From Alphaproteobacteria bacterium (GTDB taxonomy: Bacteria; Pseudomonadota; Alphaproteobacteria; CACZRW01), in assembly GCA_017507765.1 (NCBI GenBank), contig JAFWAG010000032.1, positions 20,919-84,918 on the forward strand: a DNA stretch of 64,000 nucleotides, given 5' to 3'. The position numbers were made by a program, and so were the translations under genes. The notes beneath the pieces are model-generated. The model was not told the origin of the DNA. It worked only from the letters and a program-made list of their open reading frames with translations, and did not search any database. Each line of letters starts with the position of its first letter. Within the stretch, counting starts at the first letter, position 1. Shown piece after piece: positions 36,388 to 64,000 of this stretch.

Positions 36388-36396
36388 TTTCTTCTC

Positions 36397-36618
36397 TTAT
36401 GCGTCCTTTTCTTCGGCGGTTTCTTTAGGTTGAAGAGACGGAAGCTTAGCCTTCTTTGTCTTCCAAGTCAGCCATCCGGCGGCAGCAAAACTTAAAATTA
36501 TCACTGCTCCGGAGGTTATATAAACCAACCTGCTGTCAAGCAATCCGGAAAGTCCGGTTGCTCCAAAAATAATTATCAGAACTATAAAACTAAGATAGTA
36601 TACCAGATTTCTTAACAT
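36397..36618 (-). CDS. Small 2-TM membrane protein embedded in the virB6 array (possible VirB3/VirB2-like accessory subunit; unassigned)
   Basis: 73 aa; two hydrophobic helices then a charged tail; tight spacing (20 bp after paralog 4 stop, 9 bp before paralog 5 start). Confidence 0.4.
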   Translation of the reverse strand: MLRNLVYYLSFIVLIIIFGATGLSGLLDSRLVYITSGAVIILSFAAAGWLTWKTKKAKLPSLQPKETAEEKDA

Positions 36619-36638
36619 CTTAGTCCCCTTTTTTCCAA

Positions 36639-38099: not shown

Positions 38100-38118
38100 G
38101 CTTTACTTTCCTTTACAG

Positions 38119-40581: not shown

Positions 40582-40672
40582 CGCTTTGTCCTTTTAAAAA
40601 GCCTCCTATCCTTCAAATATTATAACCTTTTTCCCGTTCCTTTAGTATGACAGTTTTTTGATTCCTATCCCT

Positions 40673-42715
40673 TTATGGAGTAACCATATCCTGCTCTCTG
40701 GCATACTTTGTGTAATCTAATCTGTCTTTAGCACTTGGAACAGCATCTCTTATTTCATTAATCTTATTAACATTCTTGGAGAATGATGCCTGTTCTTCCG
40801 GCGACAAACGATCATAATAACGTTGTTTAAGCTTCTGATATTCAAGCTTTCCTTCAAGCTTGTCCAGTCTTTCACGAGCAGCGTCTTGAGCCTCTGGTGA
40901 ATGTCTGCCGCTGGTATCGTTAATAATCATCATCTGATCCGACATTTCTTTAACCCTCTTAAAGTCGTCTTCGGCTATATTCAACAAAGAGGCGTTATGA
41001 GAATTAAACTTGCCGGTAGATTGATTATACAATACATCGTCCATTAATTTTGCTTGATAATTAGGAATATCAGGCTTAGTTCTTTCGGGTTCCGTATCAT
41101 TATGAGTATCCGGAACAACATCTTTCTTCGATGAAGACGACGATTTACTGTTCTTTACGCTTATCGCCATAATCGTTGCCGTAGCTTGCAGAGTCGTTGC
41201 CGTTACATAAGAAGCCATAGCACCGACTTTATCTCCTGCCTGCGAGCCAAACTCTACTTCCGTGTATTCACTGGCGGTTTTATCAACAACGTTCATTACC
41301 TTTACGCCAAAGAAACAGCAGGCAAAGGCAAAGAAGAACGATGAGCCGGATAAATCCATAGCGTCCCTAAGGCCTTGGATATCGTTAAGCATACACATCT
41401 GCCGCAAGTTTTCGTTTTCAAGCTCGAATGCCGTTATAAGCATAAGTATTGCCAAGGCTATGACTATCGCCAAGACAATGAAGTTCATCATAACATGAAC
41501 CAACATCTTGAAGCCTTGTTTCGCATAGTTCATAGATGACGGGAAAACCCATGCGACAATCAAAAACGGTAAAACTGAAGCTAAAATACCCAAACGAATA
41601 AGTGCGTCCAATACTTTGAAAACAAAGACAACCAAAATTATCAGACAGGTAAGCCAAATCATAATACCGGATATCAGCATAACAAAATCCGGACCGTTAA
41701 AGAAGAAATACGATGCTGCGTGCCAAGATTTACAAATAATCGCAGACGCAAACGCCATACCAAACGATACTTCTTTGTGTATCATCTCGGTCAAACACCC
41801 AAGAGCATTATAAATCTGCGTGTTAAGCATACGGCCTTCGTCCATATCCGGCTCTGCCAACGAAAGAGAACAACCGCTCATGGTCGCAAATGACGGGGCA
41901 GCAGAAAGGTTTTCGTAGGCGTCCATTTCTTCAAGCCACCTTAAAACGATACCAAACGCCGCATGGGTATTTATACCAAGAGGAAGAGTCAACGGGAAAG
42001 AAGAATAAATGTCGGCGGTAAACTGTCCGGTTTCCGATATTAAACGCCACATATTGCGCTGGTCTTTGGAAATCGCATCATAAAAAAGCGGCTTATCAAG
42101 TTCGGTTTTCCGGCTAAGCGTTTCCGTGGTTTCATCAAGTCCGGCATAGCTTTTTATAATAACTTGGTTAAACTCTACCGCTCCGACGACAATCGGCGAA
42201 ATCAACAGGTTGGATACATAGCTTATCGGCATGGTTAAAAGCGCACCGGCAAACATGGCTTTGAACAATGTCTTGCCCATTTTCGTCCAAAAGTCAGCAG
42301 GCTCTTGCGGACTGAAAGACATAAGATGTTTGCCAAGGTGATACAAAAGCCAAAGTCCAAGCAAAACCGTTAAAACCATCCGGCTTGGTCCGGCGGTAAG
42401 TTCATAAACTCCGGTACTTACCGTATCAATGGCATCAAAAATCTTTTCCACCAAAAAACAAGACCAACAGTTTGATACATGGTCGGCAACAATCTGGCTG
42501 CAAGTATCACAGTCGCCCAAAATTACTTTAACGACATTGTCATACATATCGTTAATGTTGGCGCCCATCCGGATTAAAGACAGGAACGTATCACGCAGAA
42601 TATTAACATCGGCAACTTCATCGGCGGCAAAAGAGCGCAAAGGAGCAAGAACAGAAGCAACAAACGCCGCAACTGCCGGAAGATATCTTTTAATGATGTT
42701 TTTCATTATCATCAT
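40673..42715 (-). CDS. virB6: VirB6/TrbL-like T4SS membrane protein, paralog 2, with hydrophilic C-terminal extension
   Basis: 680 aa; signal peptide; VSNCWSCFLVEKIFDAID motif; multiple TM; about 170-aa charged C-terminal tail. Confidence 0.65.
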   Translation of the reverse strand: MMIMKNIIKRYLPAVAAFVASVLAPLRSFAADEVADVNILRDTFLSLIRMGANINDMYDNVVKVILGDCDTCSQIVADHVSNCWSCFLVEKIFDAIDTVSTGVYELTAGPSRMVLTVLLGLWLLYHLGKHLMSFSPQEPADFWTKMGKTLFKAMFAGALLTMPISYVSNLLISPIVVGAVEFNQVIIKSYAGLDETTETLSRKTELDKPLFYDAISKDQRNMWRLISETGQFTADIYSSFPLTLPLGINTHAAFGIVLRWLEEMDAYENLSAAPSFATMSGCSLSLAEPDMDEGRMLNTQIYNALGCLTEMIHKEVSFGMAFASAIICKSWHAASYFFFNGPDFVMLISGIMIWLTCLIILVVFVFKVLDALIRLGILASVLPFLIVAWVFPSSMNYAKQGFKMLVHVMMNFIVLAIVIALAILMLITAFELENENLRQMCMLNDIQGLRDAMDLSGSSFFFAFACCFFGVKVMNVVDKTASEYTEVEFGSQAGDKVGAMASYVTATTLQATATIMAISVKNSKSSSSSKKDVVPDTHNDTEPERTKPDIPNYQAKLMDDVLYNQSTGKFNSHNASLLNIAEDDFKRVKEMSDQMMIINDTSGRHSPEAQDAARERLDKLEGKLEYQKLKQRYYDRLSPEEQASFSKNVNKINEIRDAVPSAKDRLDYTKYAREQDMVTP

Positions 42716-42723
42716 TTCAACCT

Positions 42724-44454
42724 TTACCCCGGATCCGAAAACAGCTTTTTACCCGTATTGGCAACCAACGAAGCACTTGACTGACCTATGGTAGCCAACG
42801 AACGACCTGCCGAAGCACCCATTTTATCGCCGACAGCATTACCAAAACCGGCACCCGCAACCGAAGAAAACTCTAAGCTGACATTGTCGACAATACCAAC
42901 AATTAAAATCGCAAAGACGAAACAAGCCAAAGCAACCAACATACTGGTACCGGAAAGATTCAAGTTCTTTGCCAGTTCTTCTATGTGGTTTAAGTAAAAC
43001 AGCGTGCGGATATCGTTAACTCCCGCCTGACCGGCATCGCCTTGGAATGCCATCATAACCAGTAAAATTGCCAACGCTAAGATAATGGCCAAGATGATAA
43101 ACATCATCACGATATGAACCAGCGATTTAAATCCTTGGCGTGCATAGCAAGATGTTGACGGGAATACCCAACAAATGATTAACAACGGCAGTAAAACACA
43201 TAAAATGCCAAGCCGCAAACAAGCGTCCAAAACCTTAAACGTGAAAATAAGCAGTAATAAGAAACTGGCGAGCCAGATTAAAGCTCCGGCGATGAAAGTT
43301 GGAATATCCGGATAGGAAATTACCGCATAGTGGTTAGCACCCTTGGCATAACAAACTATACACGAACCGACGGATATACCGAAGCTAAGCTCCTCTTGCA
43401 TATTTTTTACCATGCACATCAAAGCGGCTTTGATTTCCGGATTCAAGGCGCCGTACAAGGTTGCTTTATCTCCGCTTTCTTGAGCTGCGGCCATGGCGGC
43501 TTCGGCATCTTCGGCAACGTTATCCGTACAGTTGGTAAGAGAAGCAACATCTCTGCCGCCGCTTAAACGTCCCAAAGTTATAGATTTGTACATCTCGTCA
43601 AGCTGCCTATCCGCATCAACGCTTATCGCAACGCCGCCGGCAACAATAACAGCTCCGAAAGTAACAAAAACCGGATTTGCGGTTACGCTGCCGCCAAGCA
43701 TTGAAGCTCCGCCGACGGTACTGACGTAATCGGCGGCCTTGGAAATAGCGGCGATTTCCTCTTTGCGAGTTTCCATTTGCTCTTCCGTCCAGCGTTCGCC
43801 GGTCTTGCCGTCAACCAAATAGCTTTTGCCATACTCTGCCGACAAAGCCGCCTGCCCTCCGCTTTCATTGGCAAAACTGCGCACAACTACCGTAGAAAAC
43901 TCACTGGCGCCGACAATTATCGGCGATATAACAACTCCGGTAAAATGGCCTATGTTCAAGCTTAAAAACGCAAATGCAACTATCGCCTTTAAAAAGGTTC
44001 TTGCCATTTTTGTCCAAAACTCTTCCGGATCTTGGGGGACAAAGGCGCTGATGTGTCCTGCTATATGATACAAAATCCAAAACGCAAGCAAAAGCGCAAG
44101 CAAAGCCATAAAACCAGTTTTGGAAGCTTCAAAAACTGCGTAAGAAAGCTCATTTATCGCATCAAAAATGATGCTGAACATACGGCATGACCAACAATCT
44201 AAAAGATTGTCCGATAATACTTTGGCAGAATTGGGACAGGGGCCGGCAAAAAAGTTTAAAAAAGATTTGACCGCATCGTTAATGCTGCCTCCGGTCGCAT
44301 CGACAACGCCGTCAATAAAGCCCGCCGCCATTTGACCAAGGCTTTCCAAAAACGTCATGTCATCGCTTTGGGCGCGAGCCGTCCCCGGCATCAGCAAAAC
44401 AAGCAGTGCAAACAGTAATCCGGGGAAGCCGGCTATAATCTTAAACTTTGTCAT
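42724..44454 (-). CDS. virB6: VirB6/TrbL-like T4SS membrane protein, paralog 1
   Basis: 576 aa; signal peptide MTKFKIIAGFPGLLFALLVLLMPGTARA; LLDCWSCRMFSIIFDAIN motif; multiple TM. Confidence 0.65.
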   Translation of the reverse strand: MTKFKIIAGFPGLLFALLVLLMPGTARAQSDDMTFLESLGQMAAGFIDGVVDATGGSINDAVKSFLNFFAGPCPNSAKVLSDNLLDCWSCRMFSIIFDAINELSYAVFEASKTGFMALLALLLAFWILYHIAGHISAFVPQDPEEFWTKMARTFLKAIVAFAFLSLNIGHFTGVVISPIIVGASEFSTVVVRSFANESGGQAALSAEYGKSYLVDGKTGERWTEEQMETRKEEIAAISKAADYVSTVGGASMLGGSVTANPVFVTFGAVIVAGGVAISVDADRQLDEMYKSITLGRLSGGRDVASLTNCTDNVAEDAEAAMAAAQESGDKATLYGALNPEIKAALMCMVKNMQEELSFGISVGSCIVCYAKGANHYAVISYPDIPTFIAGALIWLASFLLLLIFTFKVLDACLRLGILCVLLPLLIICWVFPSTSCYARQGFKSLVHIVMMFIILAIILALAILLVMMAFQGDAGQAGVNDIRTLFYLNHIEELAKNLNLSGTSMLVALACFVFAILIVGIVDNVSLEFSSVAGAGFGNAVGDKMGASAGRSLATIGQSSASLVANTGKKLFSDPG

Positions 44455-52342: not shown

Positions 52343-53059
52343 TTACTTGGCGGTAAAAGGCTCTAAAAGCTTTTTTATATACGGCATAATATTATTAACG
52401 ATTACCTTTACCCCTTCTTCATTCGGGTGCGCTCCGTCGGCAAGTAAAAGCTCTGCGGCATTCGGAACGTCCAGAACTCCCTGCATAAAGAAAGGATAGA
52501 AAATAACGTTATGCTTTTTGGCTTGGCGTTCGTAAAGGTCTTCAAATTGGTCGGTATAAGCATTGCCGAGTCCTTTGGGTGCTTGCATTCCGGCAAACAA
52601 AATGCTGATTCCTCGGTCTTCCAAAATGCTTAAAATATTATCCAGATTCTTTTCCGTTGTCGCAGGAGGGTGTCCTCTTAAAGCATCGTTTACGCCAAGT
52701 TCGACAATCGCAATATCCGGATTATACTCTATCGCCGCATTTAAACGGCTTAAACCGCCGGCAGAGGTATCTCCGCTTATTCCGGCGTTCTTTACCACAA
52801 CATCATAGCCGTCTAAACGTAACGCTTGCTCTAACTGTGCGGCAAAAGACATATTTTCCGGAAGGCCGTAACCGGCGGTAAGACTGTCCCCCAACGCAAC
52901 AACTTTTATCTGCCGAACAACTTTTTGCGCCGGCTCTACATCAGAATAAATCGTCCGGTTTTTCATATATTCGGTAAAGAAAACAAAACCCGCAACTGCG
53001 GCTAAAATCACAATCAGAATAAGGCGCTTGATTAAAATCCGCTTGGCAATCGGTGTCAT
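52343..53059 (-). CDS. SGNH/GDSL hydrolase (TesA-like lipase/arylesterase), membrane-anchored
   Basis: 238 aa; N-terminal TM; VVALGDSLTAGYG block I; GxND block; DGAHP block V. Confidence 0.75.
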   Translation of the reverse strand: MTPIAKRILIKRLILIVILAAVAGFVFFTEYMKNRTIYSDVEPAQKVVRQIKVVALGDSLTAGYGLPENMSFAAQLEQALRLDGYDVVVKNAGISGDTSAGGLSRLNAAIEYNPDIAIVELGVNDALRGHPPATTEKNLDNILSILEDRGISILFAGMQAPKGLGNAYTDQFEDLYERQAKKHNVIFYPFFMQGVLDVPNAAELLLADGAHPNEEGVKVIVNNIMPYIKKLLEPFTAK

Positions 53060-53078: not shown

Positions 53079-54056
53079 TCAGGTAACTTCGGTAACTGCT
53101 CTTATATTACCTTCGCGGTTTATTTGTACAACCCTTAACTTTTCATGCATTTCCTTGATGGTTTTGGCTCGGTCAATGGTCGGATAACTATGCAAAATAC
53201 GGTCTGTAAAGGCTTTGTAGGCTGCTTCGGAGTTTTCTGCATGAATGGTCGCAAAACAGTTTTCATGGCCGGAACCCATAAGCTCCCATAAAGCACCCGC
53301 ATTTGCCGTGGAAATCTCTCCGCCGATAATTGCGTCCGGCGTAAAACGAACAACCAAGTCAATAATCTTCGGATAGGTTAAATTGTTGGTTTGCTCCGTT
53401 CGGGATAAAACCAAGTGAACTCGGTTTAAATGAGGGACTATCAATTCGCGCGTATCTTCAATCGTAACAATACGCTTACTGGGTTCCAAGATTTTTAAAA
53501 GATTGTTCAAAAACGTTGTTTTACCGGTTGCCGTTGCACCGCTGACCAAAATATGGTCGCCACGTTTTATCGAAAACATAAGACGTTCAAACGGGTCTTC
53601 CGGTTCCGCCATATGCGCCAACGGATTTAATTGATGAAGCTTTTCACCTTTGCGAAGACCGTAATCGCCAAAGCCAAACTTTACATCTTCGGTATGAACA
53701 CGCACACACATTGCAACACCGCCGGTCAAATCTTCATTGTCATACATGACATTACGACCGGCAATTGCCGAAAAACGGTGGTCTCCGGGAAGGGTAGCAT
53801 AAACTACCGGCGTTCCTCTGTCCGGATCAAAGGGAAGTTCATACGTATTCGCAATAATATGAATAATATCATTTAAATATGTACGGGAAAGGTTTGCATC
53901 TTGCTGACAAACCCAAGGAATAGCTCTGCGGCCACGCAAACGGAGCCAGATTTCCCCCGGGCGGTTAACCGATATTTCTTCCACATTATCTTGGCTGTAC
54001 CAATAGGAAAGATAACGCAAAGTAGATTCAAGAACTTTAAAATTAGAATCCGTCAT
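53079..54056 (-). CDS. virB11: Type IV secretion ATPase VirB11
   Basis: 325 aa; Walker A ILVSGATATGKTTFLNNLL; Asp/His boxes; typical VirB11 length; 39 bp downstream of virB10. Confidence 0.9.
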   Translation of the reverse strand: MTDSNFKVLESTLRYLSYWYSQDNVEEISVNRPGEIWLRLRGRRAIPWVCQQDANLSRTYLNDIIHIIANTYELPFDPDRGTPVVYATLPGDHRFSAIAGRNVMYDNEDLTGGVAMCVRVHTEDVKFGFGDYGLRKGEKLHQLNPLAHMAEPEDPFERLMFSIKRGDHILVSGATATGKTTFLNNLLKILEPSKRIVTIEDTRELIVPHLNRVHLVLSRTEQTNNLTYPKIIDLVVRFTPDAIIGGEISTANAGALWELMGSGHENCFATIHAENSEAAYKAFTDRILHSYPTIDRAKTIKEMHEKLRVVQINREGNIRAVTEVT

Positions 54057-54095: not shown

Positions 54096-57000
54096 TCAGA
54101 AAAGCCGAGGTACAGGATTCCCCGCAGAAGAAGGACTACGCTGACCTTCCGGCAAGGGAGGAGGTTCATAAACCGGCACACTGCTCTGTTTCGGCTGACT
54201 GGGAGCTATCAACGGAACTTCGTTAGGATTCTTCCGTTTAGCCAAAGAACCGGAACCTGCTCCACCGGCTACCGTTGCGGCGTTACCGGGCTGATAAACC
54301 GTCGTGGTTTTAACCTGAGAGCTGCTGCCTGCCAAAGGACGCTCCGGCTTCTTATCCGCAATCAACGGACGCTCCTCTTTGATTATATCATCATCAATAG
54401 AGTTAGCAGCATCCGGAGAACGTATCCACAAATCCTGATTAGCAAATGCCGTAAGCTTGGTTCCCGAAGGTATGGTAACCACGGTCATAATATCCGAGTA
54501 ATCTTTCAACATCTGCTGAATAATGGAGCTTGATGTATCCGTCCAGCTATCACGAGCATCTTCATACGCTTCCTGACGGTCGGACTTCGCAGACTCTCCG
54601 CCATAGGCTCCCGGTACAGGCTTGCTGCTAGAAGCCATAGCAATTGTAATGGCATCGGCGGCAATTTCACTGACCAGAGGCGTGAAGTATTTATCAAACA
54701 AGCGACGGTCAAGATATCCCGGAATGCCTCCACGGCCTTGGGCGTCTCCGCTTATACCTTCAAAGACAAAGGCAATGCCGTCAGGACGAATCAAGCGTTC
54801 CCAAGTAATATCAACCTTGGATACAAAGCCGCCACCTTGCGAATCTCCGCCAGAGACTCCAATCAAACGGCTACCCGCAGGAATGACTATGTTTCTTCCG
54901 TCTTCGGCATAGATATTTCTTTCCACAATCGCCGTAACCGGAGTATCCGTAAAGCGGGAATCAATCGTGTTAACCAAGACTGCCGGTATAGCTTTGCCTT
55001 TGACAATCAAACGATTCATCTTCACAGGAAGACTGGAAACCGATTTCTTAATACCTAAGCTTGACCAATCTTCATCTTCCGTGTTGTTTTTAAAGTTCGG
55101 TGCCTTGAAATGTCCCCATTCAACATTAGCTCTGCGGTCTTGCTGTAAAGCCATAATTCTTCTGACCCGAGAGCTGTCATACCGTTCTCCGGGGCCAAAT
55201 CCGCCGCCTTTACCAAGGTTCTTATTACCGTAGTCGCCGAAAGCTCCTAGATTATCAAATACCGGCGGAGTTTTCGAAGCGTCTCCGGCAATCGAAGAAG
55301 CCATAGATTGCTGCGACGGAAGACGAGAAATGCTTCCTTCGTTACGAGCAAACGACCGTATCTTTTCGGCAATGACGTCTTTAACCGAAGCAACAACTTC
55401 GCCAAGAGTATTCAAAAGCTCGCCGTCTTCATTGAGACTGCCGACAACAACGCCGTCCATATCGACAACATCTCCGTTTTCGTCAAGCCAACCGATATTA
55501 TTTCCTTCGGTATCAACCAAGAAATCTTTTTCCGAAACGGTACCGATATGACGGCCTCTGGCATCAACAATGGAACCATCAGCCATGACTCTGCCGTCAA
55601 TTACGTTGCCTTTTAAATCAACCAATTCGCCGTCTTCGTTAACAAAGCCAACAACTTTGCCGTCTTTGTTCACAATCGCTCGACGAGTGTCTGTATAGCC
55701 GATGACCTTACCGGAACTATCGGTTAAGACCCTGCTCTTGGGTGCGACACCTATTCTTTTGCCCTGTAAGTCAACTACGGTACCGTCTTCGACAACTCGC
55801 CCAACAATCTTTCCGACTTTGTCACGAACCATGCCGTCAGCACCGACTGTACCCATAAGAACGCCGTTTTTGTTGTATGCTTTCTTGCCGCCGAAGCCAC
55901 CCAAAGCTTGTTCCACAGTGGAAACAACTCCGATAGTCTCTCCTTTAGCATTAACAACAACGCCGCTTTCCAAACAATTACCGATGACACGTCCGGTCGC
56001 ATCACGGACAGTTCCGTCTTCCCAGATAATACCGCTAAAGTTTCCGGTTTTGCCGATAACCGGCTGACCGACAAGACGCATAGCCTTTTTAGGCTGGAAT
56101 GCTGTAGTTGAGGCAACGCCAATTTTCTTACCAAGCATATCTCTTACTACACCGCTGATTTCAGCTCTGCCAACGATTTTATCGCCGGAAGCACGGACTA
56201 ATCCGTCTTTACCAATCGTGCCGACTGCAAGCCCGCTAGAAGCTAAGACCCGACGGCCGACAAGTTCGTTGCGAATATCAAGATTAGAGTTGGGAACAAA
56301 ACCAAGCAATTTGCCGGAAGTGTCTTTTGCGATGCTCTGCGCATCAACCGAACCGATAACTGCACCGTCCGAAAGAATCATACCGTCTTCGTCTATGGTA
56401 CCGATTACTTTTCCTTCCCGACCGTAAACTTTCAAGGCAAGCATCTTAGAAACTGCCTTGGCAGGAACAAAGGCTATAGGACGACCTTGGGAATCTTTGA
56501 CGATTGCCCGACTGTTAACTGTGCCTAAAGCCGTACCCGTCTTGGTAATCAAATTACCTGTATCATTTATGGTACCGACCGCTAAACCGGTAGAACCGTA
56601 TGCGGTAAGTCCGCTGTACGGATTTTTCATAACCGCAGGAACGAAACCAATAATTGTACCTTCGGCATTATGAGCAATACCTTTGCCATCTACGGTACCC
56701 AACGGAGCATCAGAACTATCCCTAACAACACCTTCGGCATCAACTTTACCTAAGACTGCTCCTCTGGCATTGACAACGGATTTATCAATGTAGGAACTGC
56801 TTACCTTCATGGAAACGTATCCTAATACTTCTCCCATAGTGTTGCGGAACAAGCCATGTTCATCAACCAGACCTACGGTATTACGCTCTCCGTCCAAAAT
56901 CTTGCCCGTTGTATCCGGAATACCGATTAAGTTACCTTCGCTGTCATAAACCGTGCTAGCATCTTTTGAGCGAACAAAGCCAATTACTTCACCGGAGAAG

Positions 57001-60000
57001 CTTCTGGCAATGCCATAGTTTTCAATCGTTCCTATCTCGTTACCGTTTAAGCCAAGAACCATTCCGTTTTGACCGACACGACCGATAACTTTTCCGTCAG
57101 CTGCCTGAACTTCCTCCAAATCCGAGAAGGCGCTTTTTACTGCTTCGGGGATAAAGCCGACTATCTTACCGGACGAATTAACGACAACTGCCTTATCGTT
57201 AGCTTTGCCGTAAATAACTCCTTTGGAATCACGAACATCGCCAGCGTTATCAACTACTCCCATTAAAAGCCCAGAAGCATCATACGCTTTATCGCCGGCA
57301 AAACCGTTGACCTTAACCGCCGGAACAAAACCGGTAATGTTTCCGTTTGCTTCAAGCATAAAGCCGAACTTGTTCAAAACGCCTAAAAGCTTGGCATTAG
57401 CATTCAATACCTGACCGTCTGCATTGGCTGTTCCTATCGGGTCTCCGTTCGGATTGTATACCGTCATGCCAAAGAAAGCATTCTTGGTGTCAGCCGGAAT
57501 AAAGCCAATAATACGATTAGAGCTATCTTTGGCTATGCCTAAAGCGTCTATCTCTCCGATTGTGCGACCGGAAGTGTCAGTTACTTTACCATACGGAGAA
57601 ACAATGCCGACAACCATTCCCGTCGAACCTAAGACTAACCTGCCGGAAAATACTGATAATTCACCTTCTGCGGCTTCGTTTGAAGAAACTCTGCCGATAT
57701 CACGACCGTCATTGCCTCGGATTGAACCGTCCGGCATACGCTCGCCAATAATCATATTTCCGCCGCCACGAACTTTCAAATCAGGAACTACACGTCCCAG
57801 AACTTTACCGTCTACACCGACAACACGTCTGTCGTTCAAAGTTCTGCCTATGACATTGTTGCGATTGTCGATAACCGTACCGTCGGCAAGAACTCTTCCC
57901 AAATGGTTGCCGTTTTCATCAATCAGCATTCCACGGGTTAAAACTTTCCCAAGAACATTGCCATTGGCATCAACAACATCTCCGGATATGGTCAAGCAAT
58001 CCATAATCTTGCCGTCAGCTCCGACAACATTACCGTTTACCAAAACTCTGCCAAGGAAACGGCCGTCCAAACCAATTACCGAAGAAGCATACTTTACCAA
58101 AGAACCGATATTATTGCCGTCACTGCCGGTAACTTTGCCGTCAGCTCCGATACAACCAAGATAAGAACCGTTTTTGTTAATAACGTTAGCTCCCAAACCG
58201 GTGTAACCGATAACTTGACAAGCTCCACGAATTACCGTGCCTTTATAAGAAGCAATTACCGCAATCAAACGATTATCATCGTCAATTACCGACCCGTCGG
58301 TAGCAATCCGTCCTATGGTGCGACCGTTATCATCGCTTACGGTAGCGGACGGTTCTGCCAAACCAATCTGTTCACAGTTCGGAGTTACCGCAGGACCGTA
58401 GGCAACTATACCGCCAATGATAGAGCCGCTTCGGTCAATAATTGAACCGTCATCGGTAATCATGCCAAGCTGGGCGCCTTCTGCATCAATAACCGTACCG
58501 TCAAAAGACTGGAAGCCTTTTGATTGATATCCGGCAAAAATCGGCATACCCATACGCATACTCATACCGACATATGGGACTAAGCTTTTACTGTTGCTGT
58601 TTCCTCCGATAGCCGTGCCATCCGGAAGAACTCGACCGGATAATCCGTTTTCTCCCAATAAAGAGCCGTTTGGATTGATAACACCAACAAACTGACCTCT
58701 ATCATTAACCGCAGTTTTTCCCGTTAAAATACCGCCAATAACTCTGCCTGCCGAATCAATAGCAAAACCGGAAGGAAGGATAGTGGCAAACTGCCGTCCC
58801 TGAACATCGACAACATCGCCGGAAACAGTTAACCAACCGGCAAAAGTTCCGTCTTCGGTAAATACATTATAAGAAGAAACCGTTGAACCGATAACGTGTT
58901 TGCGGGCGTTAATAACCATACCATAAGGAAGCGCCTTACCAATTACGGTTCCGGTTGTATCAATTACGGAGCCGTCAATGTCTATCCACCCCAAAGGCTT
59001 AGCTTCGGCGCTGAAAGCAATACCGGTGGGAACCGTACCTGCGGTAACGGAACCACGTTCCAAAACATCTCCGACGGCGGAAAGGCTGCCAAAAGCACGC
59101 ACCCCGTCCCAAGCCGAACCGTCAGGCATAGCAAAACCGGCTAAGCTTCCGTCATAACGGATTAAAGCTCCTTCCGGAATTACCGCACCGGCAGGGATTT
59201 TATTACGGTTTAAAACAACACCGTTTGCCGAAACGCTTCCTAAGGCAACTTTGTCTGTCAGGCTTTCAACCAAAGCGTCGGGGCGAACTATACCCATAAT
59301 ACCGCCTTTGGACGACATCGCTAAAGTTCCAAGCTCCCAAACTTTACCGATAATATCCTTACCTTGGGAGTTAACTACGGTAGCGTCAGCCAAAACTTTA
59401 CCGATAACCTTGCCGTTTGGTCCCATGGCTATACCGTTGTCCGCCGTATAGCCGATAACGTCTCCACGATTACCGATAACCATTCCTTCGGGAACAATCC
59501 GACCTATAGCTATTCCGGCAGAAGAAACCACAATCCCTGATGCACGAACCGTTCCAATAATTTTGCCGGTTTCATCGGTAACTTTACCTGCCGGACCTAC
59601 TTTACCGGCTTGTTTGCCGTCAAAGCTTACAAATAAGCCTGTGGGCATAATCCGACCGACATAGGCACCTTTTTCATTCATAACCGAACCGTCAGGCATA
59701 ATCCTGCCGATATTGTTATTACGATTATCGACTACATCTCCGTTCGGCAAGGCGTTACCGATAACTTCACCGCTACGGCCGATAACACTTCCAAGCCGAA
59801 CAGCTTTGCCCAAAACTTTACCGTCATTGGAAATAATGAACAATGCAGGAGTCATGCGACCAATCTGGGCGCCGGTACGGTCGTAAACCGCACCTTTACT
59901 ATCAATACGACCTAACATACGGCCGGAAACACCCAAAGCAACAACCCGAGACGGAACAACTTTACCGACAATATTACCTTTGGTATCAATAACCATTCCG

Positions 60001-62591
60001 GTAGAAATTGCTCTGCCTATGATTGTTCCGGAATTATTTCTTACGATTGTACCGTCGGAACTTAAACGACCTATATTATTACCGGCATAATCAATAACTT
60101 CGGCTCCTGTGGACATATTGCCGTTTGCCCAACCGATAACGTTTCCAGAGTTATCAACAACCGTACCGTCAGAAGAAACTTTACCAATTACTTTACCGGA
60201 AGCATCAACCACGGAAGAGTCCGCCATAACTCTGCCAATAACATTTCCAGATTTATCAACAACCCGTCCGAATACTTTTTCGCCAGAGCTGCCGATAACA
60301 TTTCCTTCTTTGTCAACAACCGTACCGTCAGGAGCAGCTTTACCAATTACCTTACCGGAAGCATCAACTACGGAAGAGTCCGGCATAACCCAACCGACAA
60401 CTTTTCCGGCTTTATCAACAACGGGATTGAATACCTTTTTATTCGACCAACCAATGATATTTCCTGCGGTATCAACAACCGTGCCGTCCGGAACTGCTTT
60501 ACCGATTACCGTACCGGAAACGTCAACTACGGAAGCGTCCGGCATAACCCAACCAACAACCTTACCGACCGCATCAACAACCGTGCCGAAAGGAACGTTT
60601 GAGCCGATAATCTTATTATTCGCATCGTATAAGATGCCACCGGCACCAAGACAGCCTATGTAATCACCTTTGCGGTTATATATCTTACCGTCCAAACGAG
60701 TCTGGCCAAGGACTTCACCCTGTTGGTTAATAACCGAACCACCATGGCGGACATAACCGGATTCAAGCGTGCTTCCTTTGCGTTTAATCAAACCATCAGG
60801 ATAAACTTTTGCCGAATCATCACCAAGAATGGTTCCGGAGACATCAATAGCCCCCAGAATGCCGCAACCTTTTGTCAAAGCAATATCCGAAGAAATTACT
60901 TTACCAAGATTTCCGCCTTCGGCATTGATGATATTGCCGTTGGGCATAACATTGCCAAGAACGTTACCGTCTTCGGAAACAACCATAAAATTAGGAGCGA
61001 CATAGCCAATAGTTCCGCCTTCGGTACCGATAGGCAGACCTTTGGAGGGTATTTTACCGATTACTTCAGCGTTATCGTTTACAACACTGCCGTCCGGCAT
61101 TGCGCAACCCAAAGCATTGGAAGCAGCGTCAAAAGCTTTACCTTCGGAATTGATGTAACCGGCGATTTTACCTTCTTTATTCATGAACAAGCCGTCACGA
61201 ATTACGCCACCGATAACACTGCCCGTAAGGTTCGTAACAACACCGTCAATATCAACCGAACCGATTTGACGGCGGCCTTTATCAATTACCAAGCCGTCCG
61301 GCATAACCATACCAAGGAACTTACAACCGGAGCCAACAGCTACACCCGAAGGAAGAAGTTTGGCAACAACTTGATTTTCTGCGGATACAGCAACTCCAGA
61401 GGGAAGAATGCGCCCAACAACACCTTTTCTGCCTTTTACTTCGGCATTAGGCATAACAATTCCGGCAACGACATCTTCGGCATTTACGGCAACTCCGCGA
61501 GGAGCCAAATAACCGATTGTGGTTCCGTCCAAACCAACTACTCTGGTATCGCCCAACACCGTACCGATAATATCGCCGTTTTTGCCAAGTACCGTAGCGT
61601 CAAGACCTACGGTTCCAAGGAATATACCGCTTTTATCAACTACCGGTCCTAACTCTATGGCTCCACCGATAACATTCAATTTGGCATCAACAATAGTTCC
61701 GTCCCCCAAAGTCCGACCGACAACAGTTCCGTTGTCGTCCAAAACTATTGAATCCTTCATTATCCTACCAAGGATTTTACCGTCCAAAGAAACCGGTATT
61801 TTATCTGGTTGAACAATACTGATAACAGCTCCGGTTTCATCAAGTACGGCGCCGTTTTCTCCCATTTTGCCAAGGACGTTGCCGTTTTCATCAACGACAT
61901 TGCCGGCTTCGTTCAAATAACCAAGAACTTTGCCGTCAAAGCCCATAACCAGACGGCCTTTTTGAATAATTGTATCTCCGGAAGGTCCGGCTTCACAAAC
62001 TCCACACAAGCTTGTATCAGTTGCGACACCGGCAACGGTAACAATAAGTTTGCGGGTAACATTAAGCCCGCCCTCTTCCGTCCAACGAACGGCAAGATTG
62101 TTCTGTAAGCTACGTCCCATAACCGGTTTCCAGAAAACCCGAATGTTACAGGTTGCATCTGCGGACAAAACCTGATTGGGTTCGCACTTACTTTCATACG
62201 AAAAACCGTCTTGCTGCGGTTCTTCCAAATCAACGGAAACAATCCGGATTTTTCCTCCGGTCGCAATCAAGGTGATTACAGATTCCGCTTTGGTACCCAA
62301 AACCACCGGATCCAAAACCAAGGCTTCCGGTTTGGCTTCAAGCTTTGCACTGCCTTCAGCCGGAGCCGTCGGCAAAGCTATCGGAGCGTTGTTTCCGGTG
62401 TTTAAAGCGGCAAATGGATCAACCGTAGCCGTCAAATCAGGGTCTGTGTCCTCCACTCCCCGTCCCCCTAAGTCAATAAGGGAAAGAAGCCCGATAAGAA
62501 AAGCCAAAGCCATAACCAAACCAACAATCAAAACGATGCGGTTGGTTTTCTTTAAATAACGATCCGATGCGCTTAAAAGTTCTTTTTTCAT
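54096..62591 (-). CDS. virB10: Giant VirB10: N-terminal TM anchor + about 2,150-aa array of 17-residue repeats + canonical TrbI/VirB10 C-terminal domain + Pro-rich tail
   Basis: Uninterrupted 8,496-nt ORF (2,831 aa); TM IVLIVGLVMALAFLIGLLSLI; C-terminal region RLIVKGKAIPAVLVNTIDSRF...IVIPAGSRLIGVSGG...KVDITWERLIRPDGIAFVFEGISGDAQGRGGIPGYLDRRLF...TVVTIPSGTKLTAFANQDLWI aligns with the A. tumefaciens VirB10 barrel; start ATG overlaps the virB9 stop (ATGA). Confidence 0.8.
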   Translation of the reverse strand: MKKELLSASDRYLKKTNRIVLIVGLVMALAFLIGLLSLIDLGGRGVEDTDPDLTATVDPFAALNTGNNAPIALPTAPAEGSAKLEAKPEALVLDPVVLGTKAESVITLIATGGKIRIVSVDLEEPQQDGFSYESKCEPNQVLSADATCNIRVFWKPVMGRSLQNNLAVRWTEEGGLNVTRKLIVTVAGVATDTSLCGVCEAGPSGDTIIQKGRLVMGFDGKVLGYLNEAGNVVDENGNVLGKMGENGAVLDETGAVISIVQPDKIPVSLDGKILGRIMKDSIVLDDNGTVVGRTLGDGTIVDAKLNVIGGAIELGPVVDKSGIFLGTVGLDATVLGKNGDIIGTVLGDTRVVGLDGTTIGYLAPRGVAVNAEDVVAGIVMPNAEVKGRKGVVGRILPSGVAVSAENQVVAKLLPSGVAVGSGCKFLGMVMPDGLVIDKGRRQIGSVDIDGVVTNLTGSVIGGVIRDGLFMNKEGKIAGYINSEGKAFDAASNALGCAMPDGSVVNDNAEVIGKIPSKGLPIGTEGGTIGYVAPNFMVVSEDGNVLGNVMPNGNIINAEGGNLGKVISSDIALTKGCGILGAIDVSGTILGDDSAKVYPDGLIKRKGSTLESGYVRHGGSVINQQGEVLGQTRLDGKIYNRKGDYIGCLGAGGILYDANNKIIGSNVPFGTVVDAVGKVVGWVMPDASVVDVSGTVIGKAVPDGTVVDTAGNIIGWSNKKVFNPVVDKAGKVVGWVMPDSSVVDASGKVIGKAAPDGTVVDKEGNVIGSSGEKVFGRVVDKSGNVIGRVMADSSVVDASGKVIGKVSSDGTVVDNSGNVIGWANGNMSTGAEVIDYAGNNIGRLSSDGTIVRNNSGTIIGRAISTGMVIDTKGNIVGKVVPSRVVALGVSGRMLGRIDSKGAVYDRTGAQIGRMTPALFIISNDGKVLGKAVRLGSVIGRSGEVIGNALPNGDVVDNRNNNIGRIMPDGSVMNEKGAYVGRIMPTGLFVSFDGKQAGKVGPAGKVTDETGKIIGTVRASGIVVSSAGIAIGRIVPEGMVIGNRGDVIGYTADNGIAMGPNGKVIGKVLADATVVNSQGKDIIGKVWELGTLAMSSKGGIMGIVRPDALVESLTDKVALGSVSANGVVLNRNKIPAGAVIPEGALIRYDGSLAGFAMPDGSAWDGVRAFGSLSAVGDVLERGSVTAGTVPTGIAFSAEAKPLGWIDIDGSVIDTTGTVIGKALPYGMVINARKHVIGSTVSSYNVFTEDGTFAGWLTVSGDVVDVQGRQFATILPSGFAIDSAGRVIGGILTGKTAVNDRGQFVGVINPNGSLLGENGLSGRVLPDGTAIGGNSNSKSLVPYVGMSMRMGMPIFAGYQSKGFQSFDGTVIDAEGAQLGMITDDGSIIDRSGSIIGGIVAYGPAVTPNCEQIGLAEPSATVSDDNGRTIGRIATDGSVIDDDNRLIAVIASYKGTVIRGACQVIGYTGLGANVINKNGSYLGCIGADGKVTGSDGNNIGSLVKYASSVIGLDGRFLGRVLVNGNVVGADGKIMDCLTISGDVVDANGNVLGKVLTRGMLIDENGNHLGRVLADGTVIDNRNNVIGRTLNDRRVVGVDGKVLGRVVPDLKVRGGGNMIIGERMPDGSIRGNDGRDIGRVSSNEAAEGELSVFSGRLVLGSTGMVVGIVSPYGKVTDTSGRTIGEIDALGIAKDSSNRIIGFIPADTKNAFFGMTVYNPNGDPIGTANADGQVLNANAKLLGVLNKFGFMLEANGNITGFVPAVKVNGFAGDKAYDASGLLMGVVDNAGDVRDSKGVIYGKANDKAVVVNSSGKIVGFIPEAVKSAFSDLEEVQAADGKVIGRVGQNGMVLGLNGNEIGTIENYGIARSFSGEVIGFVRSKDASTVYDSEGNLIGIPDTTGKILDGERNTVGLVDEHGLFRNTMGEVLGYVSMKVSSSYIDKSVVNARGAVLGKVDAEGVVRDSSDAPLGTVDGKGIAHNAEGTIIGFVPAVMKNPYSGLTAYGSTGLAVGTINDTGNLITKTGTALGTVNSRAIVKDSQGRPIAFVPAKAVSKMLALKVYGREGKVIGTIDEDGMILSDGAVIGSVDAQSIAKDTSGKLLGFVPNSNLDIRNELVGRRVLASSGLAVGTIGKDGLVRASGDKIVGRAEISGVVRDMLGKKIGVASTTAFQPKKAMRLVGQPVIGKTGNFSGIIWEDGTVRDATGRVIGNCLESGVVVNAKGETIGVVSTVEQALGGFGGKKAYNKNGVLMGTVGADGMVRDKVGKIVGRVVEDGTVVDLQGKRIGVAPKSRVLTDSSGKVIGYTDTRRAIVNKDGKVVGFVNEDGELVDLKGNVIDGRVMADGSIVDARGRHIGTVSEKDFLVDTEGNNIGWLDENGDVVDMDGVVVGSLNEDGELLNTLGEVVASVKDVIAEKIRSFARNEGSISRLPSQQSMASSIAGDASKTPPVFDNLGAFGDYGNKNLGKGGGFGPGERYDSSRVRRIMALQQDRRANVEWGHFKAPNFKNNTEDEDWSSLGIKKSVSSLPVKMNRLIVKGKAIPAVLVNTIDSRFTDTPVTAIVERNIYAEDGRNIVIPAGSRLIGVSGGDSQGGGFVSKVDITWERLIRPDGIAFVFEGISGDAQGRGGIPGYLDRRLFDKYFTPLVSEIAADAITIAMASSSKPVPGAYGGESAKSDRQEAYEDARDSWTDTSSSIIQQMLKDYSDIMTVVTIPSGTKLTAFANQDLWIRSPDAANSIDDDIIKEERPLIADKKPERPLAGSSSQVKTTTVYQPGNAATVAGGAGSGSLAKRKNPNEVPLIAPSQPKQSSVPVYEPPPLPEGQRSPSSAGNPVPRLF
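55540..62020. repeat. About 6.5-kb in-frame array of >120 degenerate 51-bp units encoding [VI]VDxxGxVIGxVxxDG[ST]-type 17-aa repeats inside virB10
   Basis: Protein-level periodicity, e.g. VVDKAGKVVGWVMPDSS/VVDASGKVIGKAAPDGT/VVDKSGNVIGRVMADSS/VVDASGKVIGKVSSDGT; DNA copies are divergent (not recent slippage). Confidence 0.7.
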
Positions 62592-63997
62592 TGCGTCCGC
62601 ACAACAATACAGTTAAGACCACGGCGACTTAATTGCCCACAAATCTTATCGCCAACTTTAATATCACTGATGGGCCCGACCCGAAGACGGAATAAATCCT
62701 GTTCCCCGCTTTCTGCCGAAGTATCAACCGAGAAATACGGCTGATAACTGCCGATTAAGTCTCGATTACGGCGAGAAATGGTATTCCAAGAATCTTCCAA
62801 CTTAGAAATCTCTTTATCCGAACCAAGTTCTATGGCTATTTTTTCCTGTCCGGCAGGTGCGGCGGCAAAATATCCAAGACGCTGACCGTCTTTGGCCATA
62901 GAGGAAAGAGTGCTGCGAATGTCGGCTTTAGCACGGCTGTCCGCTACTCCCGTCGGAAGGGGACGCATACCGGCAGGTACGCTGTTAACACTGCCAGACT
63001 TGCCGTTGTTGCCAAGCCAAGCGGAAAAACTTTCTTCAATTACCATGTCTTCCGGCATTGCTTGTCCCGCAGCTTGCTTTGCGGCGGCATTCTGTGAACC
63101 GGGCATCTTTGTGGCATTAGGTCCGATAGGTGCTTGAACGTCCCAATGCTTTTCATTATAGGTGCTGTAATCTATGTAATCCAAGCCAAAAGCAGGATCT
63201 TTGCGCAGTTTAAGACATACTATTTTTTGTCCGTTTCTTAAAACCATGTCTCCGACTGCTTCAACAATAATTAAACGGCCGTTAGGACCGCGGGTACGAA
63301 AGCCAACTGGAACTTCACTATCCTGCACTATCAGATTGACAATCGGCCGCTCTAACATCGCCAAGGCTTTGGGGCCAAAATCTATGTAAGTAAAAATCTC
63401 ATCGTGCCAGACTCTTTCCGGCGCAATGTCAATATCGTTCGGGTTAGGAAGATATACTTCTATATCGAAGCGAAACTTCTCGGGATTCGTAGGAATCCCC
63501 TCCAACCAGTTCTTAGGTGCATTACTTGCTACGTTTAAAGCCGCCGAGGGATTCAGCGAATTACCCGGAATGGCGGGGTTCATTCCGCTGCCGCGCATAC
63601 CGCTTACCCAACCGGGGGTGTTACTGCTGACACCGCCGGTAACTCCGCTGCCGGAAGGAGCATTCGGAACAATAACATCAACAACTGCGTTGGTTATTCT
63701 GTCCGTATTGTATCCTTCGCTGCGAAGATAGAAGGCATAACGATTGCCGGAACGACCGAAAACGATAAGGTTGGAATCAACGCCAATCATACCCGGCTGC
63801 GTAAACAGCAATAACGAATTAGGAGAAGGAAACTCTCCGACAAAGGAAGAAGTATCGCCTATCCAAATGGAATCAATTACTTCCCAAGCAGGAAAATTGA
63901 TAAGCGTTGCCATGCTTTCCCGCAAACGAACCGGAAGAACTTTTTCCGGAGCCCAGCTGTAACGGGAATATCCCGGACTGGTTTGACCTTCGCCCAT
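62588..63997 (-). CDS. virB9: VirB9 (TrbG/CagX family) with a Gly/Ser/Asn/Pro-rich insertion between the N- and C-terminal domains; 5' end may lie beyond the window
   Basis: 469 aa or more; N-domain LFTQPGMIGVDSNLIVFGRSGNRYAFYLRSEGYN; C-domain HDEIFTYIDFGPKALAMLERPIVNLIVQDSEVPVGFRTRGPNGRLIIVEAVGDMVLRNGQKIVCLK matches the VirB9 C-terminal motif (dDG.fTYf.F....lP.vf.v..dG.E.lvN.r..g..lvV......l.LR.G); stop overlaps the virB10 start. Confidence 0.7.
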   Translation of the reverse strand: MGEGQTSPGYSRYSWAPEKVLPVRLRESMATLINFPAWEVIDSIWIGDTSSFVGEFPSPNSLLLFTQPGMIGVDSNLIVFGRSGNRYAFYLRSEGYNTDRITNAVVDVIVPNAPSGSGVTGGVSSNTPGWVSGMRGSGMNPAIPGNSLNPSAALNVASNAPKNWLEGIPTNPEKFRFDIEVYLPNPNDIDIAPERVWHDEIFTYIDFGPKALAMLERPIVNLIVQDSEVPVGFRTRGPNGRLIIVEAVGDMVLRNGQKIVCLKLRKDPAFGLDYIDYSTYNEKHWDVQAPIGPNATKMPGSQNAAAKQAAGQAMPEDMVIEESFSAWLGNNGKSGSVNSVPAGMRPLPTGVADSRAKADIRSTLSSMAKDGQRLGYFAAAPAGQEKIAIELGSDKEISKLEDSWNTISRRNRDLIGSYQPYFSVDTSAESGEQDLFRLRVGPISDIKVGDKICGQLSRRGLNCIVVRTQ

Positions 63998-64000
63998 GTT

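Follow-up and report, generated by a model that had tools for sequence, protein, structure and literature searches.

The window analysed here, a DNA stretch of 64,000 nt, carries genes of a type IV secretion system (T4SS), including an exceptionally long virB10 located between virB9 (upstream) and virB11 (downstream) (Table 1). The virB10 start codon and the virB9 stop codon overlap as ATGA, the reading frame contains no internal stop codons, and the predicted product is ~7.5 times the usual size of a VirB10. To our knowledge, no larger VirB10 is known. In relatives, virB8 is found upstream of the block, and a second VirB8-like ORF was seen in relative L060. The tandem VirB6/TrbL-like paralogs match one another in BLASTP (E 1e-9 to 1e-89) and each has 4-8 hydrophobic segments. 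Housekeeping genes separate virD4 from the other vir genes, and virB9-virB10-virB11 lies at 53-64 kb. With multiplied VirB6 paralogs and vir genes in scattered islets, the system appears, from its gene content and arrangement, to be rvh-like.

Table 1. Coordinates of the secretion genes in the window and of the modules encoded by the giant virB10
Feature	Position (nt)	Strand	Details
virD4 coupling protein	9646..11847	-	733 aa
Five tandem VirB6/TrbL-like paralogs	34681..44454	-	568, 486, 820, 680, 576 aa; Pfam TrbL
virB11 ATPase	53079..54056	-	325 aa; TIGR02788, E 3e-40; exact protein MBR7158673.1
Giant virB10 ORF	54096..62591	-	2,831 aa, 291.5 kDa; stop codon 54096-54098 included
Pro-rich C-terminal tail, predicted disordered	54099..54410	-	residues 2728-2831 (104 aa); ends ...VPRLF
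VirB10/TrbI beta-barrel domain	54411..55046	-	residues 2516-2727
Putative antenna, two long helices and loop	54495..54704	-	residues ~2630-2699
Low-confidence linker	55047..55379	-	residues 2405-2515; GxGGGFGPGERY and predicted helix
17-aa beta-hairpin array	55380..61946	-	residues 216-2404; ~112-129 units, 223 kDa; Pfam beta-flower families
Most recent internal duplication	60133..60609	-	three copies of 159 nt, each of three units + 2 aa; identity 67-79%
Periplasmic ASH/PapD-like Ig domain	62019..62357	-	residues ~79-191; then conserved CxxC (C196, C199)
Cytoplasmic N-terminus and single TM helix (~18-39)	62475..62591	-	residues 1-39; motif LSxSDRYLKKTNR
virB9: CagX and C-terminal SPOR domain	62588..64000	-	runs past window end; 538 aa in L001

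The initial annotation of this DNA reported a giant, repeat-bearing VirB10 ORF, and that observation is confirmed. An ORF of identical length (8,496 nt) was found in three further assemblies, comprising an ENA MEGAHIT contig (318 kb) and two Logan runs, with 19-20 nt differences from the window ORF, 3-5 of them non-synonymous and 15-16 synonymous. Such an ORF could in principle be an artefact: a chimeric assembly, two genes joined through a sequencing error, or a pseudogene in decay. Short-read assemblies are frequently broken or wrongly joined at repeats, many of the family's database records are fragments, and the exact protein is missing from the protein collection in which its neighbors are present. 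However, the equal ORF length in the three further assemblies and the divergence of the DNA repeats, which share merely 60-79% identity and include no long identical copies, eliminate an assembly collapse or chimera; the initial annotation had argued the same from the divergent copies. The family also includes 55 fused orthologues in other species, and its strong purifying selection (dN/dS of 0.03-0.10 between sister species) excludes a pseudogene or neutral low-complexity filler. The likelihood of an artefact is thus vanishingly small, and the giant virB10 ORF is genuine and under selection.

Assignment of the product to VirB10 was originally based on the N-terminus with its TM helix, a TrbI-like C-terminus, the virB9 and virB11 flanks, and the ATGA overlap, and the profile match, the fold, the topology, and the order of the genes all support this identity. 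The Pfam search proposed for the C-terminus recovered TrbI (PF03743) over residues 2529-2722, with 99.6 bits (cut-off 35; E 2.7e-28) and coverage of profile positions 2-187 of 188. Sequence matches were to ComB10, VirB10, and TrwE, and ComB10 was the top PDB and NCBIfam match of the barrel. The scores for the NCBIfam equivalogs NF038091 (87.4 bits; cut-off 220) and NF038092 (107.1 bits; cut-off 300) reached neither threshold. Judged by these profiles, the giant VirB10 is a member of the family and an equivalog of neither Agrobacterium-type VirB10 nor ComB10. AF2 models the C-terminal domain as a beta-barrel bearing an antenna of two helices (fragment residues 501-525 and 542-570), the arrangement known from solved core complexes of the outer membrane. 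These helices, which would span the outer membrane, are taken as the antenna, and the modeled fold aligns to solved, antenna-bearing VirB10 C-terminal domains. The proline-rich tail beyond the barrel, which had been described as atypical, is real and family-wide; AF2 assigns it pLDDT values below 50, and 17 relatives all share its terminal L-F. The GxGGGFGPGERY motif of the linker that precedes the barrel is conserved across the family, and AF2 places a helix at fragment residues 344-360.

At the other end of the protein, the only hydrophobic segment of TM grade (residues 19-37; Kyte-Doolittle hydropathy 2.93) is preceded by KKTNR, and the LSxSDRYLKKTNR motif is kept in relatives. From these features we infer a bitopic topology, in which a short cytoplasmic N-terminus would be followed by one TM helix. 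The next domain was modeled by AF2 with pLDDT 70-89, and Foldseek related it to the PapD-like domains of HYDIN (2ys4, 2e6j), the ASH domain of CEP192 (6fvi), and MSP (1m1s), with TM scores of 0.60-0.69. Pfam matches of the protein to ASH were sub-threshold. This ASH-like domain is kept in relatives, including a short form described below.

The claim that a repeat array replaces the customary linker of VirB10 also held: ~2,190 residues consist of 17-aa units. Autocorrelation of the sequence at lag 17 was 0.219 (background ~0.07), and the strict motif G..hG occurred 97 times in residues 200-2420, compared to 27 ± 4.6 in shuffled sequences. A PWM chain recognized 112 units, spaced by exactly 17 residues in 80 of 111 cases; it was used in place of a strict per-unit HMM (hmmsearch), which undercounts at 65 units. 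The earlier figure of more than 120 copies is therefore correct by length alone (2,189/17 = 129) but not by recognizable units. The computed consensus, V-[VI]-D-x-x-G-x-V-[IL]-G-x-V-x-x-D-G-x, matches the one proposed initially. Position 3, three residues before the anchoring glycine, is D in 38% and N in 18% of the 98 glycine-anchored units, and the array units contain the [DNEQ]xxG hairpin-tip motif of beta-flowers (as defined in PMC10584680).

Profile searches assigned the array to the Pfam families Bflower_2 (405 bits, cut-off 38; E 1e-123) and Bflower (134 bits, cut-off 25). When ten 220-aa slices were searched separately, all ten matched Bflower_2 (5-fold beta-flower hairpins) and nine scored above the gathering threshold, a profile result that differs from the beta-solenoid suggested in the initial annotation. 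In the AF2 models, each 17-aa unit forms two short strands, with pLDDT 80-94 across residues 2130-2404, and fragment residues 106-275 contain 20 strands followed by a helix. A four-sequence alignment gave a low-confidence model of the array's N-terminal third, the homologue queries with residues 1-420 and 1-215 having returned one and three matches, respectively. The array units are homologous to the "petals" of beta-flowers. No clear 5-unit super-period was found in the array sequence, where the regular 17-aa runs comprise 10, 10, 6, 16, 16, and 9 units, and closure of the units into discrete beta-flowers, shallow barrels of 8, 10, or 12 strands with 4-, 5-, or 6-fold symmetry, is therefore putative. 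Foldseek found no solved structure in the PDB that resembles the repeats.

An alternative is a single continuous beta structure for the array, a beta-solenoid or else a spiral shell of the RHS/YD type, which would produce a long fiber or a hollow cocoon. Consistent with this, unbroken runs of 10-16 units lack 5-unit periodicity; the YD-repeat profile TIGR01643 gave a weak match (E 0.003) in which no single stretch passes alone; several homologues carry precomputed RHS (PF05593) matches, and JGI named one of these homologues a YD-repeat protein; and the low-confidence model gave weak, poor Foldseek matches to teneurin YD shells. PF05593 is absent from the Pfam matches of the giant VirB10 itself, and neither profile nor fold searches related the array to pentapeptide, solenoid, or beta-helix structures. 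We regard a continuous structure as unlikely and favor serial small barrel or hairpin modules for the array.

The search for expanded virB10 orthologues, as proposed in the initial annotation, identified 73 complete relatives among MAGs of gut and rumen Alphaproteobacteria. All 73 are giant, so the protein is not an isolated case. The single-ORF form is found in 55 (1,930-2,666 aa), and the remaining 18 encode the protein as two translationally coupled ORFs. The 18 form a monophyletic group that is nested among the fused forms in the phylogeny. In the split species, the final codons of the N-terminal half hold a GGAGGA ribosome-binding site for the C-terminal half, and the latter starts with a signal-peptide-like sequence (...AQ|EITAIDFNGD) in 17 species. 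At the equivalent of the split junction in the window protein (residues ~1330-1360), hydropathy was below the threshold for an internal TM segment or signal-peptide relic. Division into two genes, which the initial annotation had named as a case against its reading, thus exists naturally in the sister clade but not in the window's genome, where the ORF is intact.

Between sister species, dN/dS is 0.03-0.10 for the array and 0.02-0.26 for TrbI, and the array alignments are collinear with few indels. The array is thus conserved position by position, purifying selection acts on it as strongly as on the barrel, and the initial description of it as old and selected is borne out. Its length varies between close species (for example, 2,201 vs 2,335, 2,438 vs 2,666, and 2,279 vs 2,609 aa). 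One relative, P0039 (GCA_964521375.1; 579 aa), has the N- and C-terminal modules and no array. It aligns to residues 7-206 and 2476-2724 of the window protein (E 1e-8 and 2e-52) with 7 residues between the two blocks, where the giant VirB10 has an insertion of ~2,270 residues, ~2,190 of them array. P0039 shares the cytoplasmic motif, the TM helix, the ASH-like and TrbI domains, and the virB9-virB10-virB11 order; it differs in having zero repeats and in being encoded by a compact conjugative-type virB4..virB11-virD4 operon with a TraI-like helicase nearby. Bflower+TrbI matches of 550-724 aa were considered as intermediate, normal-sized forms and rejected; they are N-truncated fragments.

Taken as a whole, the data are probably best explained by a genuine VirB10 of a chromosomal, scattered, rvh-like P-type T4SS in an uncultured gut alphaproteobacterium, in which the array serves as a periplasmic scaffold, its location being deduced from topology and from the split species. 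Along the chain, the array follows an N-in TM helix and precedes the periplasm-facing side of the barrel, and the C-terminal half in 17 split species carries its own signal-peptide-like start. The TM helix would anchor the protein in the inner membrane, and the barrel and the SPOR-bearing VirB9 would jointly make the outer-membrane core and pore. Between them, the array would fold as a series of small modules, either beta-barrels or hairpins. Against this model, so long a chain would, if extended, exceed the usual width of the periplasm, and dense packing or partial export is therefore assumed. The array may act as a structural module rather than as a simple tether. In an oligomeric core of ~14 copies, a number borrowed from other T4SSs, the arrays would add ~3 MDa and could surround the translocation channel with a large cage, skirt, or ring in the periplasm. 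The outcome would be an "expanded" T4SS core, reached by another route than in the Cag and Dot/Icm systems. More tentatively, and with rather less confidence, the ~14 copies of ~130 hairpins might assemble around the channel into a ~3-MDa periplasmic beta-flower lattice or cage of a kind not seen before, within which the two halves of the split-clade protein would re-associate through repeat-repeat contacts.

In a different role, the array would be displayed on the cell surface or on a pilus and make contact with mucus, host cells, or other bacteria, a function proposed for the CagY repeats. CagY sets a precedent for surface location and engagement of host receptors (PMC6761968, PMC10706595), the bacteria are gut-associated, and array length differs among close species. 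However, both membrane-embedded elements have the array on their periplasmic side, the split C-terminal half has a Sec-type signal peptide and not a surface-export signal, and low dN/dS with positional conservation is the opposite of immune- or host-driven diversification. The divergence of the DNA copies and the constant ORF length in four assemblies also mean that there is no CagY-like switch. Surface display is improbable on this evidence. Binding might instead be the chief role of the array, with contacts to peptidoglycan or membrane lipid throughout the envelope that would anchor or position the machine, and no function as a scaffold; the Pfam clan holds the lipid-binding Tubby domain (PMC10584680), and the partner VirB9 has gained a peptidoglycan-binding SPOR domain. 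No ligand motif or binding site was found in the array, more than 110 copies go far beyond the needs of anchoring, and the annotations that favor binding are themselves predictions, which leaves this a doubtful explanation.

VirB10 is the sole T4SS subunit that crosses both membranes and is believed to pass conformational signals powered by ATP on to the pore in the outer membrane. The sister clade makes two polypeptides, the second with a Sec signal peptide, and an unbroken chain from inner to outer membrane would therefore be dispensable. If true, the envelope-spanning, energy-sensing role of VirB10 needs no continuous chain, and the natural two-gene variant provides a ready test of whether covalent continuity matters. 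Strong purifying selection has kept the giant VirB10 in >70 species-level genomes of Alphaproteobacteria that are widespread in gut and rumen. The protein also points to an uncharacterized rvh-like secretion system in common commensals. We know of no experimental structure and no established function for the beta-flower hairpin; the array would represent the most extreme use of this recently named element, and its blocks are attractive structure targets.

Literature searches for this repeat type, VirB10 size, and split form found no description of them. Queries for VirB10 with RF32, RF32 with type IV secretion, and DUF3659 yielded nothing on the giant VirB10 family, and those for unusually large, repeat-bearing VirB10 proteins yielded only CagY, Anaplasma, and Xanthomonas. 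The initial statement that no described T4SS has such a subunit overlooked CagY and DotG, and the earlier interpretation overall is partly supported. CagY and DotG are known independent repeat expansions of VirB10, alpha-helical in the former and built from pentapeptides in the latter; the giant VirB10 would add a third, all-beta type.

In Helicobacter pylori CagY (1,927 aa), alpha-helical repeats spanning ~1,000 aa separate the TM segment from the VirB10 domain (PMC10706595, PMC9371333), and this repeat-expanded VirB10 reportedly decorates the surface and engages host receptors (PMC6761968, PMC10706595). The CagY repeats are alpha-helical and Cys-rich, and their near-identical DNA repeats recombine and vary among strains. 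In contrast, the array here consists of 17-aa beta-hairpins, is encoded by divergent DNA at a constant 8,496 nt, evolves under low dN/dS, and is about twice as long; the large cytoplasmic repeat region of CagY is absent. A recombination switch like that of CagY is excluded by the divergent DNA copies and the single ORF length in all four assemblies. Legionella and Coxiella DotG (1,048 to >1,500 aa; pentapeptide repeats) is also similar in outline: DotG (IcmE) has a C-terminal TrbI domain and a variable, repeat-bearing middle, with species-dependent size from 1,000 to >1,500 aa (PMC6761968), and Foldseek aligned the fold to 9ngw and 7muq. DotG nevertheless belongs to a type IVB system, reaches at most about half the size of the giant VirB10, and recombines at a high rate, whereas the array here is strictly conserved. 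No pentapeptide families occur among the Pfam matches of the giant VirB10, and its gene context is virB-type, unlike that of DotG/IcmE.

The rvh T4SS resembles the present system in its scattered chromosomal islets, five tandem enlarged VirB6 paralogs, virB8-virB9-virB10-virB11 block, and ComB-like barrel (PMC2653234). RvhB10 is, however, normal-sized, and its oddity is an extended antenna of ~127 residues (bioRxiv 10.1101/2025.08.29.673095); the antenna here has ~70 residues, and it is the periplasmic linker that has expanded. The hosts also differ, being gut-lumen MAG lineages rather than Rickettsiales. With beta-flowers (PF21784/PF21785, clan CL0395) the array shares the hairpin unit with its [DNEQ]xxG tip and profile matches across its whole length. 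As described (Durairaj et al. 2023), beta-flowers are single small domains of ~100 residues with 4-6 petals, whereas here ~112-129 petals form an array within a secretion subunit, with flower closure putative.

The C-terminal region of the giant protein was matched by Pfam TrbI (residues 2529–2722, E 2.7e-28, far over the gathering score) and, at the sequence level, by ComB10 (2bhv, 2.8e-18), Xanthomonas VirB10, and TrwE. The AlphaFold2 model of residues 2130–2831 contains a confident barrel and two long helices, and Foldseek aligned this modelled domain to the solved VirB10 C-terminal domains 6gyb, 7o3j, and 3jqo (1e-12). Given these matches and the barrel fold, the VirB10 assignment is secure. 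The protein fell below the NCBIfam equivalog cut-offs for both Agrobacterium-type VirB10 and ComB10 and is a divergent member of the family. It has a single TM-grade hydrophobic segment (residues 19–37). Its ATG and the stop codon of the upstream CagX/VirB9 gene share an ATGA overlap, and the downstream gene encodes a VirB11 ATPase (MBR7158673.1; TIGR02788, E 3e-40). VirB9 of the same system is also enlarged, with a terminal SPOR (peptidoglycan-binding) domain; typical VirB9 proteins have ~270–300 aa, and this one has 538 aa (read in another assembly), with relatives at 548–597 aa. The predicted disordered tail of VirB10 terminates in ...[VI]PxLF, with the L and F invariant across 17 relatives, and a family-conserved motif, GPGGGFGPGERYDP...RR, immediately precedes the barrel. 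Neither the tail end nor this motif is known to have a role in characterised VirB10s.

Features of the giant virB10 locus, its surroundings, and related loci (window positions unless a locus is named)
Feature	Position	Strand	Remarks
Giant virB10 ORF	54096..62591	-	2,831 aa, 291.5 kDa, uninterrupted
Pro-rich tail of VirB10	54099-54410	-	predicted disordered
Region with the pre-barrel motif	55047-55379	-
Three 159-nt repeat copies	60133-60609	-	sole TRF-detectable array
CxxC directly after the ASH-like domain	61992-62006 (residues 196-200)	-	CGVCE; CVICE or CNYCE in relatives; conserved
CagX/VirB9 gene	62588-64000	-	upstream of virB10; C-terminal SPOR domain; continues beyond window edge
GDSL lipase, LigT-like phosphoesterase, PAS-GGDEF diguanylate cyclase	52343-53059 and 50567-51463	-	directly after virB11, same strand
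Five tandem VirB6/TrbL-like paralogs	34681-44454	-	568, 486, 820, 680, 576 aa; mutual E 1e-9 to 1e-89
Four consecutive ORFs	25916-33431	-	627, 412, 301, 1,061 aa; near VirB6 cluster, HTH regulator gene between; no Pfam match
427-aa ORF	11857-13140	-	upstream of virD4, 9 nt apart; two hydrophobic segments; no Pfam match
virD4	9646-11847	-	~40 kb from virB9-11, amid housekeeping genes (LeuRS, RNase E/G, ProRS)
Split giant virB10	L060:3318-11155		two adjacent ORFs; likewise L034, L046, L067, L069, L074, L077-L082, L086-L090
Short-form VirB10 (P0039)	L091:6001-7740		579 aa, complete; GCA_964521375.1

Between the N-terminal domains and the barrel lies the repeat array (residues 216–2404, 223 kDa), equivalent by length to 129 units. 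Identity autocorrelation peaked at lag 17 and its multiples (0.219 vs ~0.07), and the strict core motif G..hG occurred 97 times in residues 200–2420 vs 27 ± 4.6 in shuffled sequences, at an even density throughout. A PWM chain recovered 112 units, with a spacing of exactly 17 in 80/111 cases, and the computed consensus, V-[VI]-D-x-x-G-x-V-[IL]-G-x-V-x-x-D-G-x, agrees with the 17-aa repeat described in the initial annotation. At residues ~1690–2250 the pattern shifts to three units plus an insert of 7–12 residues. The DNA copies are 60–79% identical. In Pfam, the array was matched by Bflower_2 (5-fold beta-flower; E 1e-123, 19 stretches), Bflower (4-fold), and DUF3659; each of ten 220-aa slices matched Bflower_2, nine exceeding the gathering score. 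Durairaj et al. 2023 (PMC10584680) defined these families on AlphaFold models; they describe a shallow 8–12-stranded barrel built of beta-hairpin "petals", each tipped by [DNEQ]xxG, a fold that is without a PDB counterpart and shares a clan with Tubby (PMC10584680). The model of residues 2130–2404 (pLDDT 80–94) has two strands of 3–5 residues per 17 aa, with 20 strands in one 170-residue block followed by a helix. The protein is almost certainly a VirB10 with a conserved beta-hairpin array.

An ORF of identical length (8,496 nt) is present in three other assemblies, a 318-kb ENA contig and two Logan runs, which differ from the window by 19–20 nt, only 3–5 of them protein-changing. When the C-terminal region was searched against a single genome for each GTDB species, 281 stretches encoding a relative were identified. 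The best 80 come nearly all from Alphaproteobacteria MAGs of gut, rumen, or faecal origin, "Acetobacter sp. CAG:977" among them, and at all 73 of these loci uncut by a contig end the TrbI-bearing ORF is giant. Five virB-locus contigs (L011, L013, L062, L079, and L085) were deposited as Lactobacillales, Limosilactobacillus gorillae, Lactobacillaceae, or Holdemanella biformis MAGs, names that probably reflect mis-binning or mislabelling. Single-ORF giants account for 55/73 loci (1,930–2,666 aa, median 2,290) and have the N-terminal motif, TM helix, and next domain of the window's protein, whose 2,831 aa make it the longest single chain seen.

That next domain (residues ~79–191) is a predicted beta sandwich (pLDDT 70–89) matching ASH/PapD-like Ig structures (HYDIN 2ys4 and 2e6j, CEP192 6fvi, and MSP 1m1s; TM 0.60–0.69); Pfam ASH matches to it were sub-threshold. 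It contains two further conserved Cys (ESKC...ATC), and ASH-like domains also occur as 16–34 tandem copies in giant proteins unrelated to VirB10 (P0077, of 4,358 aa, P0078, and P0079). The short relative P0039 shares the cytoplasmic motif, the TM helix, and both the ASH-like and TrbI domains with the giant form; it lacks the repeats, and its C-terminus reads ...FPRLN. Its operon is compact (virB4...virB8-virB9-virB10-virB11-SLT-virD4, with a TraI-like helicase nearby). P0039 aligns to the window's protein in two blocks, residues 7–206 and 2476–2724, with seven P0039 residues between them. The giant form thus reads as a P0039-like VirB10 carrying an insertion of ~2,270 residues behind its ASH-like domain.

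At the remaining 18/73 loci, the TrbI ORF opens with a signal-peptide-like sequence followed by repeats and TrbI. In 17 of them the adjoining upstream ORF (the N-half; 1,108–1,402 aa) carries the cytoplasmic motif, TM helix, Ig-like (ASH) domain, and further repeats; L025 was counted as split from the N-terminus of its TrbI ORF only, the locus covered there not including the upstream position. Across the 17 species the junction is conserved: the N-half has the C-terminal sequence ...QEVAKNRRN*, with a GGAGGA ribosome-binding site within its last codons (AACCGGAGGAAT TAA), and the C-half has ...AQ|EITAIDFNGD at its signal-peptide-like start. Together the halves reach ~3,500 aa (L089). A neighbour-joining tree built on the TrbI domain, which carries no support values, places all 18 split forms in one monophyletic group, nested among fused forms and sister to the window's protein. 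With the conserved junction, this looks like one gene fission, since retained. The initial annotation had named a separation of repeats and TrbI domain into two genes as a finding that would refute it; that arrangement is real in the neighbouring clade but not in this genome, where the ORF is uninterrupted.

Arrays of sister species can be aligned collinearly, interrupted only by occasional block indels (121, 48, and 13 aa), and the array dN/dS is 0.03–0.10, compared with 0.02–0.26 for the TrbI region and 0.04–0.05 for the N-terminal module. Array length drifts among related species (e.g., 2,201 vs 2,335 aa and 2,279 vs 2,609 aa). On these alignments, the signature is that of a structurally constrained module and not of a region of antigenic variation.

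With an N-in TM helix before it and, after it, the side of the barrel that faces the periplasm, the array would be periplasmic. We slightly favor its role as a periplasmic scaffold. The domain order, the single TM helix, and strong constraint throughout the array are observed, as is a signal-peptide-like sequence of Sec type on the split C-half. At ~14 protomers, as in other T4SS cores (PMC9371333), the arrays would contribute ~3.1 MDa. With 22–26 five-petal modules, each chain would exceed the width of the periplasm, so the arrays would have to pack laterally or fold back, forming a cage, skirt, or ring round the channel. The VirB9 SPOR domain suggests attachment of the enlarged core to the cell wall. 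In the split clade, the half next to the anchor and the half next to the barrel can be separate chains, from which we infer an assembling structural module rather than a simple covalent tether.

Housekeeping genes stand between virB9-11 and both virD4 and the VirB6-like cluster; in relatives, virB8 lies upstream of virB9, with two VirB8-like ORFs in one. The four consecutive ORFs near the VirB6 cluster could encode system-specific components or substrates. An archipelago of vir genes with proliferated VirB6 is the pattern of the Rickettsiales vir homolog (rvh) T4SS (PMC2653234), and the scattered genes, multiple VirB6 paralogs, and ComB-like barrel match it here in a gut MAG lineage. The systems differ after virB11, where rvh operons have virD4 and this locus has the lipase, phosphoesterase, and cyclase genes, in an order unchanged in other assemblies. 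They also differ in VirB10 itself, expanded here in the linker and in RvhB10 in the antenna (bioRxiv 10.1101/2025.08.29.673095).

Full-text literature searches found no description of a giant beta-hairpin-array VirB10 family, and database entries, where a source name was given, read "hypothetical protein", "TrbI/VirB10 family protein, partial", or "YD repeat-containing protein". The initial statement that no described T4SS has such a subunit was nevertheless too strong, since two repeat-expanded VirB10s precede it: CagY (1,927 aa), with alpha-helical, recombining repeats (PMC10706595), and DotG (1,048 to >1,500 aa), with pentapeptide repeats (PMC6761968). Repeat expansion of VirB10 was thus already known, and the present case is set apart by the all-beta, beta-flower-like repeat type, the scale (an array ~2x the CagY repeat region), strict conservation without DNA-repeat recombination, and a natural two-chain form.
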